Shown here one piece after another: positions 45,001-51,000 of a stretch of DNA of 64,000 nucleotides (position 1 is its first letter; every line of letters starts with the position of its first letter). Made by a program: the position numbers. The stretch is from Thermodesulfobacteriota bacterium. Its GTDB lineage: Bacteria; Desulfobacterota_D; UBA1144. The stretch spans positions 32,001 through 96,000 of the forward strand of contig JAYYZJ010000012.1 of assembly GCA_036340075.1 (NCBI GenBank), written 5' to 3'.

Positions 45001-48000
45001 TACATGTGTCACCTAGTATCATGAAGGTAAGTGTCCCTAAAGACCAACACTCTCCTAAGTTTGGACAATTTGCTTCTTCACATACCGTATGAAGTCTATT
45101 TCTTGCGACAATTCCTTTTAAAGTTTTAAAATTATTTCCAAAAGGAATCTTTGATCTTATCCATCTCGGTTTTCTAATCAAATTTCTATTTAACCTCTTT
45201 AGTTTTTTCAGCTTTCTCTAAATAATTAATCTTTTTTTGCAATTGGTTAATTTTAAAGCTCTTTGATATTGAACTAAAACCCATAGTTATTATGCAAATG
45301 AATACTCCGAGCAAGAAAGCTACAGCTAGCAGCAAAGAATTTGTAATAGTCTTGTTTTCAAAAGAAACAACTTTAATATTTAAATTGACAATGTATTCAC
45401 TTAAAAAAATCTGTTGATTTTGAAAAATAAAAATGATTGTCATTAAAAATAACAAAGATACTAAAATTGCTTTAAGCATGATATTTAGATGATTTTAACA
45501 TATTTACAAACTTGAGTTATAAAGATAATAAAGTTTTTCAAAATATTCGCTTTTTATTTCAGGAATAATTTTGTCTAATAGCTTCTCTTTCTTTTTTGGA
45601 AAATATTCTATATCTAAATCTTCTAATTCTAGGATGTCTTCAATGTATTTAATTGCAGATTCAAGTCCACCAGTAGCATCAACTAGCTTTAATTTCTTAG
45701 CTTGGTTACCAGAGAAAATTCTTCCATCTGCCACCAATTCTATTTCTTTTTCAGATAATTTTCTTCTATCTTTCACTACTTGCTTGAACTGTGAATGAAC
45801 ATCTTCAATAATCAGACTAAGTATTTTCTTTTCATCTTCAGTGAGTTCTCTCCTAGGTGTTCCAATATCTTTTAATTCCCCGGATTTAACAACCTCTATA
45901 TTAACCTTAAGATACTTAATTAATTTTGATAAATCATAATATTGAGTGATTACACCAATGCTTCCTGTTATAGATCCAGGATTAGCAAAAATATAAGAAC
46001 TTCCACATGCAATCATGTATCCTCCAGAAGCTCCGATATCAACTATACTTGATACTACAAGTTTGGATTCGTTAAGATTGATTAAAGAATTATAAATTTC
46101 TTGAGATGAGCCAACTGTGCCACCAGGAGAATCGATTCTAATTATTACAGCCTTTATAGATTCATCATCCAAAAATTCCTCGATACTTTTTAAATATGCC
46201 TTAGGACTCCTAATCACCCCGGTTATTTCAAGAACAGCAATTTTATTGGGAGGATTTATAGTCAGAAATGCACTATATATAAATGTACAAAGAACGATTA
46301 GGATTAGAGCATTTTTTACACTTATCTTTTTAATTATATCTTTCATGTAGAACCTCATCGATTGTCTGTTTTATCAGCCAAGGAGGTGTTGATGCACCAG
46401 CACTAATTCCAATAATTTTATCTCTAAGATTTAGATTTAAACCCTTAATTTCTTTAAAAGTTTCTATTTGATATGTGAGAGAATTTACTTGTTTGCATAA
46501 TTCGGCAATCTCTCTAGTATTAGAACTATTTTTTCCACCAATTACCAACATAATATCAACATCTTTTGCAATTTCTTTAGATTCCATCTGTTTATTGTGT
46601 ATGTCATCACACAATGTATCTATTACTTTAACTTCAAATTCTTTCAATGGTTTTAAAAGACTAACAACATCCCAAAAAGTTTCCATTGGAATCGTGGTTT
46701 GTGCAACAAGACCAATTTTCTTACAATTTAATTGATTAATAATTAATTCGTCTTTATTTTTAATAACTAAGCAATTGTCTTTAGCGTAACTTTTTGCACC
46801 TATTATCTCAGGATGATTTTCATTGCCTACTATAAGGACAAAATAATCATCTTCAGATAATGATTTAACAGCGAATTGGAGCCTTTTGACTATAGGACAA
46901 GTCATATCAACAACATTCAAAGAAGAATTATTTAGATTCTCTTCTTCATAATTAGGTATTCCGTGAGCTCTAATAATTACTGTTCCCTTTTCATTTTTTT
47001 CAATTTTGTTAATTACAGACAAGCCTTTGTTATTAAGAATCTCTACCATTTGGGGATTATGAATTAGTGGGCCAAAGGATTTTACTTCTTCGTTCTTATT
47101 TTTATCAAGTATATTCTCAGCTTCGGATACAGCATCTTCTACTCCAAAGCATACACCAGCACTATCAGCAATAATTAGTTTTTTAGGCATTTTGTTCCAC
47201 TATAGTTTTAATCTTTTTCATTACCTCATTAATACTCAAATCTGATGTATTAATTATCACAGCATCATCAGCTGGATGCAAGGGGCATATATCCCTTGTC
47301 ATATCGAGATTATCTCTTTCGTTAATCTCCTTCAAAACTCTCTCCTCGTTAACATTGATTCCTAGTATTTCTTTTAGTTGCAAAGCCCTTCTCCTTGCTC
47401 TGATTTCTGGACTTGCATCTAGATAGAATTTGTTTTCTGCATAAGGAAATACATAGGTACCCATATCTCTACCTTCAGCAACATAATCCTTGTTTTTTAC
47501 AAGTCTTCTTTGCATTTCCTTTAAAACATTTCTAACAATTTCATTTACTGCAAATTGTGAAGCAAGTTTAGATATCTCATTAGTTCTTATATCATCAGTA
47601 ACATCATCAGTATTGATAAATACCTTTTGAGCATTCTCTTCGTTAACGAATCTTATATGTAAATTGATTAGTATTTTCTTTAATTTCTTACTGTCATCTT
47701 CCGCTGTTACTCCATGTAAATCTGCAAAAAGAGCTAAAGCTCTATACATTGCACCAGAATCCAAGTAATTATAGCCAAGGGATTCTGCTAAAATTTTAGC
47801 CACTGTTCCTTTTCCAACTCCAGAGGGACCGTCAATCGTTATCAACATAATTCTATTTTTTCTGAAAACCCCCCAAAATTTTAAAGAAATCAGGAAAAGA
47901 AATAGAAACACAATCAACATCATTTATTGTCGTGATACCTCTTGCCTTAGTTGCAGCAACAGCAGCCATCATAGCAATTCTGTGATCTTGATGACTATAG

Positions 48001-51000
48001 CAGCTTGCAAATTCTAAATCTTCTTTTCCAATAATTTTTAATCCATCATCAGTTTCGATAATGTCACATCCAAATTTTTTTAACTCAGAGACAATAGATT
48101 TTATTCTATCAGACTCTTTAAATCTTAGTTCAGAAGCTCCTGAAATTATAGATTCACCTTCTGCCAATGCACATGCTAATGAGAGTATTGGTATTTCGTC
48201 TATTAAAGCAGGTATAGATTCTTCAGTAATATTAACTCCTCTTAATTTACTACTTTTCACCGTAATGTCGCCAGTATTTTCTCCATCCATTAAAGTTAAA
48301 TTAGATATCTTAATATCTCCACCCATTCTTTTTAAAATATCTATGAAGTGAATCCTCATAGGGTTTAAACATAAATTTTTTATACAAAGTTCCGCATTCT
48401 TATTAATTAAAGTAGCAACAACAAAGAAAGCAGCAGAAGAAGGGTCTCCAGGTACAGATATTTCTTGTAAATTAATTTTAAGACTGGGTTTTATAATAAT
48501 TTCATCTTCTTCAAATTTTATGTTATCAGTAAAATTCATTAACATTATTTCAGTATGGTCTCTTGATTTTTTTCTATCTTTAAATTTTGTTTGATTTTCT
48601 CCATATAAACCCGCAAGGAGTATTGAAGATTTAACTTGAGCGGACCCTAGATCTAATAGGAATTCTCTACCCTTAATAGTTGATGGTTTTATTTTAATTG
48701 GAAGATAGCCATTATTTGTTGAGATATTTGCACCCATATCTCTAAGAGGCTTTTCTATCCTCTTCATTGGTCTAGTTCGTAAAGAACTATCTCCATCAAG
48801 AATTGACGAAAAAGGTTGACCTACCAGTATTCCCGACAGAAGCCTAGCAGTCGTTCCCGAATTGCCACAATTTAGAATATTCTTTGGAGGAGAAAAACCA
48901 TTGATTCCCTTACTATTAACTATTGTATTGTTGGAATTGTGACTAAATTCTACTCCTAATTGCTCAAAGCAGAACACAGTAGATTGGATATCTTCTGACA
49001 TTAAAACATTGTTAATTTTAGAAATCCCTTCATTTAATGAGCATAAAATAATTGCTCTATGAGATATAGATTTGTCAGCTGGAGGTTCAACTTCTCCACG
49101 AAACAAGTAGTCGCCTCCTTCTATTGTTATACTTTTTCCCATTATTAATCCTTGATACGTTATAATAACCTTAATCACATACATGGAGAAATCTTTTTCT
49201 AAATTTAATAAGGCTTTGTTGATAGGTATAGGTGGGGGTGCGGACATAGTCGGCACAATCCCTACAAAAGTATTCTTAGAGTCTTATGGAATCAAAACCA
49301 TATTGGCGGGGTTGCCTTGGGAGAGGTACTCTATTGATCCTTATCCTGGACCACGGCCTTTTTCCGAAATTATTAATAAAACACAGATTAATAAAAGTTT
49401 ATGTTGGGCCACCAGAAAAACAAAAACCAAAGATGGCTTGTATTTTAGTGAATCGAAGGTTTCAAATGTATTAAATAAAAGAATCTTGCTTGTTAATATA
49501 TTTAATTCGCCTAAACAGATTTCATCAGATTTATTAGATTTTTGCGTAAAAGAAAAGATTGATTTAGTTGTTGGAATTGATGTAGGAGGAGATGTGCTAG
49601 CTATCGGTAAAGAACCCGGACTAGCAAGTCCACTAGCCGACTCTATGATGTTATCAACAATCAATTTCCTTTCTAAAGATATTCAAACATTAATAGGTGT
49701 TCTTGGATATGGAAGCGATGGTGAACTTAGCCACAAAGAAATTGATAAGTCTTTATCAATTCTGGGTAAGAATAAAGGAATAGTAGGTTCGCAAGGTATT
49801 AATCAAGAATCATATTCTATTATGAAAAAAGTTATAAAAAAAGTAGAAACTGATGCAAGCAGAATTCCAATTATTTCATTTGAAGGCATTCAGGGACAAC
49901 AAAAGATTAGGAAAGGTAGAATCAAAATAGAAGTGCACCCTTTGTGCCAAATTACTTTCTATATAGAAACAAAAAAACTTTATAAAGATATATCTATTTC
50001 CGCTAGATTGATATCTAAATCTAAAGATATTTTTGATGCAAACAATATTCTCATTGAGAATGGTTTTAGGACAGAGCTTGATTATGAAATCAAGAAACAT
50101 TCTCTCGTTATTGCATCAGATAATAAAGAATAATGGGAATAATAGGAATTGATATAATTGTTGAAACAAAAACAATCGAAGCAATTTTCTCAGGCGATCT
50201 ATTATATCGATCAGCAAGAATAAAATTAAATACTGCGGCCGGCATAGAATATTGCAATATAAGAATTTTAGAAATAAAATTGTCTACTTTTAACAAGTAA
50301 CATATTCCAACACTTAAAATAATCCCTAAGAGAATTCTTGTGGTACTTATAATACAATCTTCTCTCAGATTAACGATTTTTGTTTCTGATAATTTATGTC
50401 CCAGACTAAACATCATAAGTGGTATACATGTCGTACCTAAAAGTTTAATAGAGGTATTAATACCCGAATCTATACTTATTCCTGTCTTATTAAAGATAAT
50501 TGGTATAATTACAGCGTACACCAAGGGAGCTTTAAAAATCTCACCCATCTTTTTTGATCCATTTAAAATAAAGATTCCAAGAGAAGAATGAAGAAAAAAT
50601 ACAACAGTGGTAAAGATTATCGCATAATCAAGAGCAGTTTCGCCAAAGGCAAAGAGGACAAGAGGCAGGCCAAGATTCGCTGTGTTAGGGAAAATTATTG
50701 GATTCAGAAATATGCTCAAATCCTTTTTCGCGATTCTAAGAAAAAAGTATGAAATTAGCAGACATATTAGCACTATTGTTGTTCCGGTGATAACTATCTC
50801 TGATGCATTGTTTAGACTCACCTTGCCCTCGATTATAGAAGAAAAAATCAAACAAGGTGTTGAAACATACATTATAAATAGATTGATTGATTTCAAATCT
50901 ATCCTGGTAATTCGGCCAAATAAATATCCAGCAAATACAACAATCATTACAGGGAAAATTACTTCGAGTACTTTAATCCATAAGTCCATAAAAAGATTTT

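Follow-up and report, generated by a model that had tools for sequence, protein, structure and literature searches.

Apparent loss of the ribosomal protein bS1 gene from a closed gene row in small-genome marine bacteria of family UBA1144

Results

Organization of the rpsA locus

The source genome (G000) is a MAG of 12 contigs and 962,961 bases, 92.9% complete with 0 contamination. The window is the whole 64,000-nucleotide stretch of this genome that was analyzed. Pfam and NCBIfam profile searches identified the row aroA-cmk-ispH-sppA-lapA-lipA on its minus strand.

47853..49256, minus strand: aroA (EPSP synthase); PF00275 E=4e-110, TIGR01356 395 bits; opens the conserved row
47183..47923, minus strand: cmk (cytidylate kinase); PF02224 E=9e-70; the usual upstream neighbor of rpsA, also in E. 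coli
46330..47190, minus strand: ispH (LytB); PF02401 E=1e-78; in genera g2 and g4 rpsA comes directly after it
46330..46346, minus strand: closed ispH/sppA junction; 17-nt overlap, the site of rpsA in relatives
45504..46346 (or 46358), minus strand: sppA (signal peptide peptidase, S49); PF01343 E=1e-43, TIGR00706 222 bits; the downstream neighbor of rpsA in relatives
45186..45479, minus strand: LapA-domain small membrane protein; PF06305 E=9e-8; in the row of 19/19 family genomes
44255..45181, minus strand: lipA (lipoyl synthase); PF04055 and PF16881, NF004019 343 bits; closes the conserved row

The aroA start codon is ambiguous: ORF calling places it at GTG 49256, and the boundary of 49142 given in an earlier note on this DNA implies a later start. 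Inspection of the sequence placed the ispH stop codon (TAA, 46332-46330) inside the first codons of sppA, leaving no room between the genes. There are two candidate ATGs for sppA, at 46346 and 46358, which overlap ispH by 17 and 29 nt, respectively; the ATG at 46346 agrees with the MK... start of the sister genera. The rpsA slot (cmk-(ispH)-rpsA-sppA) was examined in the source genome, and the gene is absent; ispH and sppA overlap instead. The row and the 17-base overlap described earlier were thus reproduced. The junction is bridged with 0 gaps by contigs from four public seawater runs (X2, X3, X4, and X7) belonging to four studies, of which X7 may be the source sample. The best NCBIfam model for the window IspH is NF000907, "bifunctional IspH/30S ribosomal protein S1", which is matched over profile positions 2-275 of 671, the IspH part only.

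Search for rpsA in the source genome

Six-frame searches of all 12 contigs with PF00575 and TIGR00717, both at E<=10, matched only PNPase (C5:42373-42582, in a 707-aa ORF) and NusA (C5:50001-50186, in a 441-aa ORF), as the earlier note had claimed. The S1 domains are single copies at the ends of these two proteins. The best TIGR00717 score was 38.8 bits, compared to a cut-off of 577 and to 95-518 bits for genuine rpsA across the phylum. A custom profile of the seven divergent family rpsA, run with filters off, detected no rpsA among 11,725 ORFs (stop to stop, 30 aa or longer), and a custom profile of 15 S1 proteins matched PNPase alone. A tandem multi-S1-domain protein was not found in the genome with PF00575, TIGR00717, or the 15-protein profile. 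The top family-profile match (E=0.005) is RuvX/YqgF by Pfam. An rpsA homologue is nowhere detectable in this 12-contig, 92.9% complete MAG.

Distribution of rpsA in the family and phylum

The family (f1, UBA1144) is represented by 19 draft MAGs of 77-94% completeness, with no closed genome among them. The earlier family counts held: TIGR00717 identified rpsA in seven genomes (genera g2 and g4) as a 537-541-aa ORF scoring 94.6-157.1 bits, and the other 12 (g1, g3, g5, and g6) gave matches at the PNPase/NusA level only. The S1-less genomes have listed sizes of 0.8-1.1 Mb (n = 12). In every one of them aroA-cmk-ispH-sppA-lapA-lipA lies on a single contig, and the ispH stop and sppA start overlap or are separated by a few nt at most. 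In the 7/7 S1-bearing genomes the row reads cmk-ispH-rpsA-sppA-lapA-lipA, and its junctions are just as tight: rpsA begins within a few nt of ispH, and its stop codon overlaps the start of sppA. The slot is therefore shut in 12/12 and filled in 7/7 genomes, which together with the independent public assemblies that bridge the junction strengthens the earlier reading of a loss of rpsA. One tree branch (support 100/99) splits the S1-less from the S1-bearing set, and a single change suffices.

Across the phylum, rpsA was present at E<=1e-12 in 105/120 genomes by TIGR00717 and in 85/94 of those that are 90% or more complete with no more than 5% contamination. These counts are close to the 88/98 (at least 90% complete, E<=1e-25) given before. 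Scores were 458.8-517.5 bits in families f2-f5 and f7-f9 and 306.9-320.5 bits in f6. Outside the family the gene was found in 98 of 101 genomes, and the three misses are assembly gaps, as had been suspected: in G019 the ends of two contigs carry pieces of rpsA beside cmk, and G025 and G113 are missing cmk too. The row in f6 and f8 is aroA-cmk-rpsA-sppA, without ispH, and in E. coli K-12 it is aroA-ycaL-cmk-rpsA.

Decay of S1 in the sister genera

Pfam recognizes two S1 stretches per protein in g4, three in g2, and five in both f6 and f8. The g2/g4 proteins keep a six-domain length, yet only these 2-3 domains are recognized. Alignment showed that the f6 protein, earlier called shortened, is indeed shorter, but that it is missing an internal domain and not merely an end. 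E. coli S1 is described as anchored on uS2 by an N-terminal aromatic helix, with F5 and F9 stacking on F32 of uS2 (PMC4288201). This motif is present in the aligned S1 of f2, f6, f8, and f9 and absent in 7/7 g2/g4 proteins, where a phenylalanine-free stretch replaces it and domain 1 keeps its K43 loop. In close pairs dN/dS was 0.10-0.19 for rpsA compared to 0.03-0.08 for ispH; the g2/g4 rpsA evolves 2-3 times faster than its neighbors, with purifying selection persisting. These data define a decay series within the phylum, from full-length S1, to a protein one domain short, to a degenerate form without the anchor motif, to absence.

The series of shortened, divergent, and absent S1 bears out part of the earlier statement that bS1 decays with genome size. 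The relationship is not strict, because full-length S1 (465-484 bits) is kept by f8 genomes of 1.3-1.7 Mb, some of them closed, whereas f6 genomes of the same size as these carry the shortened form.

Translation context

The G+C content is 29.9-31.8% in f1 compared to 49.0% and 52.4% in a single genome each of f6 and f8, and low G+C tracks rpsA decay in f1 better than genome size does. The mean folding energy from -30 to +30 around starts is approximately -5 kcal/mol in f1 and -9.3 and -9.8 kcal/mol in the two comparison genomes; 2-6% and 37-42% of start regions, respectively, reach -10 kcal/mol or lower. Among same-strand neighbor genes, 37-42% overlap. The anti-Shine-Dalgarno (anti-SD) sequence is intact, and Shine-Dalgarno (SD) use is equally low in genomes with S1 and in genomes without it, in counts diluted by crude start calling (first ATG/GTG/TTG, ORFs of at least 100 aa). 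Since low G+C, weak start folding, and low SD use are common to the S1-bearing sister genera, they explain a family-wide relaxed constraint and not the loss on one branch.

Other ribosomal components are retained. bS21 (PF01165 71.5 bits, G000:C4:28557-28715) and bL25 (PF01386 81.2 bits, G000:C3:23688-23954) are present here and in G010, a second S1-less genome, and tmRNA is kept. The uS2 residues that contact S1 (E. coli H15, F16, H18, D188, N203, D204, D205, and R208) show no change in any S1-less genome that covers the column. F32 of uS2 is Y throughout the family, S1 present or absent. Just two columns of uS2 tell the S1-less set apart. Loss of S1 has therefore not been followed by relaxation of the docking surface, a result that would also fit a partner that still binds there or a purely structural zinc-pocket role. 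Comparison of the anti-SD, SD use, uS2, bS21, and bL25 identified no compensation for the loss of S1.

Habitat

Between 0.87 and 0.95 of the sampled words of the stretch were present in 19 DNA runs, seawater and marine metagenomes, from nine studies. The window encodes genes for peptidoglycan, shikimate, Thr, Arg, Cys, thiamine, FAD, purine, fatty-acid, and deazaflavin synthesis, and its peptidoglycan and outer-membrane genes include mur/ftsW, TolC, a TonB-dependent receptor, and the LapA domain. The earlier description of the bacterium as free-living is plausible as an inference from the seawater metagenomes and the broad biosynthetic content; attachment to other cells is also possible.

Discussion

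The closed slot and the searches indicate that rpsA has very probably been truly lost. An assembly or binning artefact, in which rpsA left the ispH-sppA slot in the common ancestor of g1, g3, g5, and g6 and is today part of systematically unassembled or unbinned DNA, for example beside the rRNA operon, is most improbable. Some DNA is unassembled, since the source genome has no rRNA operon, no 16S gene, and neither of the tRNAs (Ile and Ala(tgc)) usual in the rRNA spacer, and only 3/12 S1-less genomes have a 16S match. MAGs are reported to miss ribosomal protein genes, rpsA to a modest degree (PMC9723686), and a MAG rated 94% complete (G003) is without a block of core genes. However, with the ancestral slot closed in 12/12 genomes, an artefact needs relocation plus a consistent miss in all of them, including G010 with its 6 contigs and 1.01 Mb. 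The rpsA of g2 and g4 is not near the rRNA operon, and true gaps elsewhere in the phylum lose neighbors too or leave gene ends at contig ends, neither of which occurs here. Just as improbable is that a descendant of rpsA, too short or too diverged for profiles to recognize, survives at another place in the genome. Drift in the sister genera is large (95-157 bits compared to about 480, with 2-3 recognizable domains), and the retained uS2 contact residues would suit such a protein. Against it, even the most divergent S1 known is picked up by the generic model with E-values of 1e-27 or better, and the unfiltered family profile finds nothing in the source genome, nor at E<=0.01 in 71% of G010. In a gene-content comparison that took in a single complete S1-bearing genome, along with 71% of a second S1-less one, the annotated source ORFs common to G010 but not G003 were enzymes, transporters, and membrane proteins, with no OB-fold or RNA-binding protein by Pfam.

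The loss may be real but compensated, with an unrelated protein or factor taking over mRNA capture or unwinding, possibly docked on the unchanged uS2 surface. Full conservation of the uS2 contacts after the loss and the presence of one cold-shock-domain protein in the source genome favor this idea, but we regard it as unlikely within the coverage of the gene-content comparison above. The S1-bearing G003 has the cold-shock protein, bS21, and bL25 as well. No DEAD-box RNA helicase of the usual size appeared in the source genome, the matches being ORFs of 669-1052 aa. The one clade-specific unannotated protein tested (522 aa; 12/12 versus 0/7) is a polytopic membrane protein by sequence.

The best overall explanation, which we consider likely, is loss of rpsA in the ancestor of g1, g3, g5, and g6 after a period of decay. 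Most simply, a single loss would have occurred in this common ancestor of ~1-Mb marine bacteria. The ORF of ~1.6 kb, flanked on both sides by translationally coupled junctions (ispH|rpsA and rpsA|sppA), would have dropped out and left ispH overlapping sppA, and decay of the gene would have come before, as genera g2 and g4 display. The family-wide fall to ~30% G+C would have produced mRNA start regions that barely fold, on which the unwinding and capture role of bS1 could be spared. Such G+C content and weakly folded starts probably made bS1 dispensable; whether this was the cause of the loss we judge to be evenly balanced. Initiation would then proceed without bS1 on mostly SD-poor, A/U-rich, often overlapping start sites, with anti-SD, bS21, uS2, and tmRNA kept. 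A wider proposal, which we hold tentatively and at somewhat less than even weight, is that this is a free-living, double-membraned marine bacterium with a bS1-free ribosome and natural S1-independent, largely SD-independent initiation on unstructured A/U-rich starts and by gene overlap. On this view SD sequences serve only a minority of its genes, SD use has stayed level, no substitute factor can be detected, and the uS2 docking surface is as before. The g2/g4 protein would then be the intermediate, a six-domain S1 relic without its ribosome anchor that may already work off the ribosome.

If the lineage is free-living, loss of bS1 needs no host, and genome streamlining with low G+C would be enough. 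The whole S1 decay series is available for comparison in one phylum, the start regions of the lineage could be natural test substrates for the actual contribution of bS1, and genome-quality tools meet here an rpsA marker that is genuinely missing. A literature search of limited coverage found no report of bS1 loss in UBA1144 or in free-living or streamlined bacteria.

Several known systems resemble parts of this one. The NF000907 fusion is matched by the window IspH over its IspH half, and in g2/g4 rpsA follows ispH within a few nt; the S1 half, in contrast, has no counterpart in the source genome, and the f6/f8 row is without ispH. CPR bacteria are described as having short or divergent S1 with 3-4 S1 domains, so that fewer domains accompany small genomes there too (Tsurumaki et al. 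2022, PMC9297842). The g2/g4 protein differs in holding a six-domain length while losing recognizable domains and the N-terminal anchor motif, and in the source genome the gene is gone. In Mollicutes, bS1 has been lost, and losses of S1 and S21 are described as mutually exclusive (Grosjean et al. 2014, PMC4014445). The likeness extends to absent rpsA with bS21 kept, an A+T-rich genome of ~1 Mb or less, a retained anti-SD, and loss inside a clade in which rpsA otherwise persists (PMC4014445). Mollicutes are wall-less, host-dependent Firmicutes descendants, whereas the present lineage has peptidoglycan and outer-membrane genes and occurs in open seawater. They are also reported to be without bL25 (PMC4014445, as cited in PMC7782861), which is kept here. 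Among bacteria with tiny genomes (<1 Mb), bS1 is given as the small-subunit protein with the most frequent losses (116 strains of nine genera lack it), with loss repeated as genomes shrink and correlated with loss of bL25 (Nikolaeva et al. 2020, PMC7782861). The source genome is similar at 0.96 Mb and differs in that bL25 is present and the decay steps are all visible in one phylum. The tiny-genome data set of Nikolaeva et al. is said to consist of symbionts and parasites. Loss of bS1 is so far reported mainly from parasites and symbionts, namely Mollicutes and tiny symbiont genomes, and UBA1144 adds a new diderm instance that is apparently free-living.

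Gene row in the window

Six closely spaced genes, named by Pfam and NCBIfam, occupy 44255-49256 on the minus strand of the window.

47853-49256, minus strand, aroA
47183-47923, minus strand, cmk
46330-47190, minus strand, ispH
45504-46346, minus strand, sppA
45186-45479, minus strand, LapA-domain protein
44255-45181, minus strand, lipA

The TAA stop codon of ispH is at 46332-46330, and the sequence places the sppA ATG at 46346, 17 nt upstream of the ispH end. An alternative sppA ATG at 46358 would extend the overlap to 29 nt. The start common to the sister genera is the MK... 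start, which is at 46346 in this genome. The two genes leave no space for another one in between. These positions bear out the earlier note, which had reported that ispH stops inside sppA and that the slot where relatives carry rpsA, the bS1 gene, is closed. The best NCBIfam model for the IspH protein (46330-47190, minus strand) is NF000907, 'bifunctional IspH / 30S ribosomal protein S1', and the match covers the IspH half only (profile 2-275 of 671). Thus, the IspH of this lineage is the type that is fused to S1 elsewhere.

A DUF1152 protein (49183-50133, plus strand; 277 bits) adjoins aroA divergently, and NCBIfam has no model for it. A cofD-cofE-cofG-cofH row for deazaflavin FO/F420 synthesis is found at 56636-60740 (plus strand) in this 1-Mb marine genome. 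A deoxyhypusine-synthase-like protein in a bacterium is encoded at 23407-24471 (minus strand; NF002006, 393.8 bits, under the 434-bit cut-off); a role as a homospermidine enzyme, or as a related polyamine enzyme, is possible.

Absence of bS1 from the genome

The window spans C12:32001-96000 of the source genome (G000), which consists of 962,961 bases in 12 contigs and is 92.9% complete with no contamination. Six-frame searches with PF00575 and TIGR00717 (E<=10) identified S1 domains in two places only, at the C-terminus of PNPase (707-aa ORF) and in NusA (441-aa ORF). The rpsA of the relatives is very divergent, therefore a custom profile was constructed from the seven rpsA proteins of the sister genera g2 and g4. 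With all HMMER filters off, this profile detected no rpsA in the full set of stop-to-stop ORFs from 30 aa upwards (11,725 in total). Its best match (E=0.005, C12:122423-122860) was ruled out as an rpsA relic; it is RuvX by Pfam and a chance match. A second profile, built from 15 S1 proteins (E. coli, five families of the phylum, and g2/g4), found only PNPase in the genome. The rRNA genes, tRNA-Ile and tRNA-Ala(tgc) are absent from the assembly, and the 33 other tRNAs and the tmRNA (C5:78030-78375) are present. The DNA missing from the assembly is probably the rRNA operon.

Distribution of rpsA and state of the slot

TIGR00717 was compared to the 19 genomes of the family (f1, genera g1 to g6). 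Seven genomes (five g2, two g4) have a 537-541-aa ORF at 94.6-157.1 bits and are called S1-bearing; the other 12 (two g1, including the source genome, one g3, six g5, three g6) have matches at the PNPase/NusA level only and are called S1-less. A 640-aa ORF in one g5 genome weakly matches the rpsA model (G013:C9:125237-125542; 17.4 bits, E=4.7e-4), and it is found in that genome only.

The slot was surveyed by tblastn of the six row proteins against the ispH loci. The row aroA-cmk-ispH-sppA-lapA-lipA is contiguous on a single contig in 12/12 S1-less genomes, and the ispH stop and sppA start overlap or are adjacent. The row is aroA-cmk-ispH-rpsA in 7/7 S1-bearing genomes and continues with sppA-lapA-lipA; rpsA starts a few nt at most from the ispH stop, and its own stop overlaps the sppA start. 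The row of families f6 and f8 is aroA-cmk-rpsA-sppA...lipA and does not include ispH, and the E. coli row is aroA-ycaL-cmk-rpsA. The slot is therefore ancient.

The ispH-sppA stretch was found in 19 DNA runs from 9 seawater/marine metagenome studies at 0.87-0.95 of the sampled words, and RNA run X20 contained only 0.12 of them. Contigs from four runs of four studies span the junction without gaps, differing at 3-11 bases.

X2, 4,793 nt
X3, 1,519 nt
X4, 5,960 nt
X7, 33,643 nt

The genome itself may come from the X7 sample. These independent contigs show that the closed junction is not an artefact of a single assembly. The 'joints' listed in this read comparison all had short sides (<=31 letters) at 90% likeness; they were taken as other organisms and discounted.

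Across the phylum, rpsA was matched at E<=1e-12 in 105/120 genomes and in 85/94 of the high-quality ones. The 15 genomes that gave no match are the 12 S1-less genomes and G019, G025, and G113. In G019, two contig ends carry pieces of rpsA, a C-terminal one and an N-terminal one that adjoins cmk; in G025 and G113, cmk is missing along with rpsA. The misses in these three genomes are assembly gaps, and only one part of f1 therefore truly lacks rpsA. The rpsA match of an f9 genome (G112:C12:79943-81476) is in two pieces with two in-frame TGA codons inside the first piece, a pattern that could reflect a frameshifted or broken gene or an error in the assembly.

Decay and loss of rpsA

A maximum-likelihood tree was computed from aroA (C-terminal part), cmk, and ispH (21 rows, 798 columns) with f6 and f8 as the outgroup. 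One branch (support 100/99) divides the 12 S1-less from the 7 S1-bearing genomes, thus one change of state suffices. The tree does not settle the base of the family and hence would also be compatible with more than one rpsA loss.

Pfam identifies five S1 stretches in the full-length f8 protein (569 aa) and five in the f6 protein (491 aa), but only two and three in the g4 and g2 proteins, respectively. Alignment shows that the f6 form is missing one internal domain and that the g2/g4 proteins keep the six-domain length with most domains degenerate. The N-terminal helix motif is found in the f2, f6, f8, and f9 proteins and is missing from 7/7 g2/g4 proteins, which retain the domain-1 K43 loop. 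Helix residues Phe5 and Phe9 of the E. coli protein are described as stacking on uS2 Phe32 to form the main ribosome anchor (PMC4288201). The dN/dS of close species pairs was 0.10-0.19 for rpsA compared to 0.03-0.08 for ispH. The g2/g4 rpsA is still under selection, though relaxed. The earlier proposal that bS1 decays with genome size stands only in part, and it fails for f8, where 1.3-1.7-Mb genomes include full-length S1 (465-484 bits).

Search for compensation

Loss of the anti-SD sequence was ruled out as an explanation by the intact 16S 3' tails of two S1-less (g5) and four S1-bearing genomes. The contig stops within the tail at a fifth S1-bearing locus (G004), and 16S is not in the source assembly. 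A 5-mer SD core precedes the first start in 12.1% of 899 ORFs in the source genome, 11.6% of 329 in S1-less G010, and 12.9% of 317 in S1-bearing G003, compared to 14.1% in G044 (f6) and 20.8% in G071 (f8); start calls are crude, and these percentages are lower bounds. Interior control codons gave 1.2-1.3%. The base profiles have a small G bump at -14 to -8 that is alike with and without S1. SD use that is low and equal in both groups rules out compensation through raised SD use. In a check for leaderless mRNAs, TATAAT-like hexamers were slightly commoner towards starts, to an equal degree in the source genome and G003. The G+C content of the family is 29.9-31.8% compared to 49.0% in G044 and 52.4% in G071. 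Start regions (-30 to +30) fold at about -5 kcal/mol in the family versus -9.3 and -9.8 in G044 and G071, and only 2-6% versus 37-42% reach -10 kcal/mol. Same-strand neighbours overlap in 37-42% of cases in the family.

General ribosome shrinkage was ruled out by the retention of bS21 and bL25, which are present, along with one cold-shock protein, both with and without S1. DEAD-family matches in the source genome are confined to large ORFs (669-1052 aa). The uS2 protein (G000:C5:147596-148267; loci L127-L145 in the family comparison) retains every S1-contact residue. Only two columns distinguish S1-less from S1-bearing genomes, and we did not detect co-evolution of uS2 with S1 loss. The unchanged uS2 surface may leave space for some other partner. 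Position 32 of uS2 is Tyr in 19/19 family genomes, whereas E. coli and five other families of the phylum have Phe there; the Tyr32 genomes are the same ones whose S1 has lost the anchor motif or is gone.

The gene content of the source genome was compared with the whole of G003 (975,897 bases) and 71% of G010. No match in G003 was found for 115/968 ORFs of at least 70 aa, and 38 of these match the covered part of G010. By Pfam, the shared ORFs include metK, ahcY, rpe, folP, pdxJ, and acpS, a core block evidently unassembled in G003, and also sulfate assimilation genes, DUF6311 paralogues, and RuvX. We did not find an RNA-binding replacement candidate in this three-genome comparison. Most ORFs of the core block (G000:C1:10321-21786, which also includes scpA) lack a tblastn match in G003, showing that a '94% complete' MAG can miss much of an ~11-kb housekeeping block. 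The four DUF6311 paralogues (~560 aa, three in tandem; G000:C2:61139-66141 and C6:16986-18710) are also in G010 (~30% identity) and missing from G003. A 522-aa ORF with no Pfam family (G000:C8:65135-66700, minus strand) is found in 12/12 S1-less and 0/7 S1-bearing genomes. It was ruled out as an S1 substitute because it is a polytopic membrane protein, a clade marker, and it shows that shared descent alone can produce such complementary patterns.

Discussion

The rpsA gene is gone and its slot is closed in one part of the family, and the remaining part keeps a degenerate copy. The loss proposed in the earlier note is essentially right, with rpsA absent genome-wide and the slot closed in 12/12 genomes and filled in 7/7. 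The remaining doubt reflects both the draft assemblies of all 19 family genomes and the genome-only basis of the analysis. Circular MAGs of this class have been reported from seawater (bioRxiv 10.1101/2025.05.13.653689). We propose that the drop in G+C to ~30% would have left start regions nearly unstructured, so that unwinding and capture by bS1 would lose most of their value. The protein and its uS2 anchor motif would first come under relaxed selection, and the ORF, flanked by two coupled junctions, would then be deleted. Initiation would proceed via accessible A/U-rich starts, SD sites at a minority of genes, and re-initiation where genes overlap, with bS21 kept. The weak point of this mechanism is that the sister genera have all these properties yet retain rpsA.

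Retention of bS21 is also described for S1-less Mollicutes, where bS1 was lost seven independent times (PMC4014445). Among genomes <1 Mb, bS1 is reported absent in 116 strains of nine genera and is the small-subunit protein lost most often (PMC7782861). We found no report of bS1 loss in this lineage in the literature searched, which was limited in coverage. The loss is of the same kind as those in Mollicutes and <1-Mb genomes, but the lineage differs from the known bS1-less cases in its cell-envelope type, the retention of bL25, and the presence of intermediate steps within one phylum. Unlike those cases, it is probably host-independent, based on its occurrence in seawater metagenomes and the biosynthetic and envelope genes of the window. 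These data identify a new, apparently free-living instance of an already known kind of loss.
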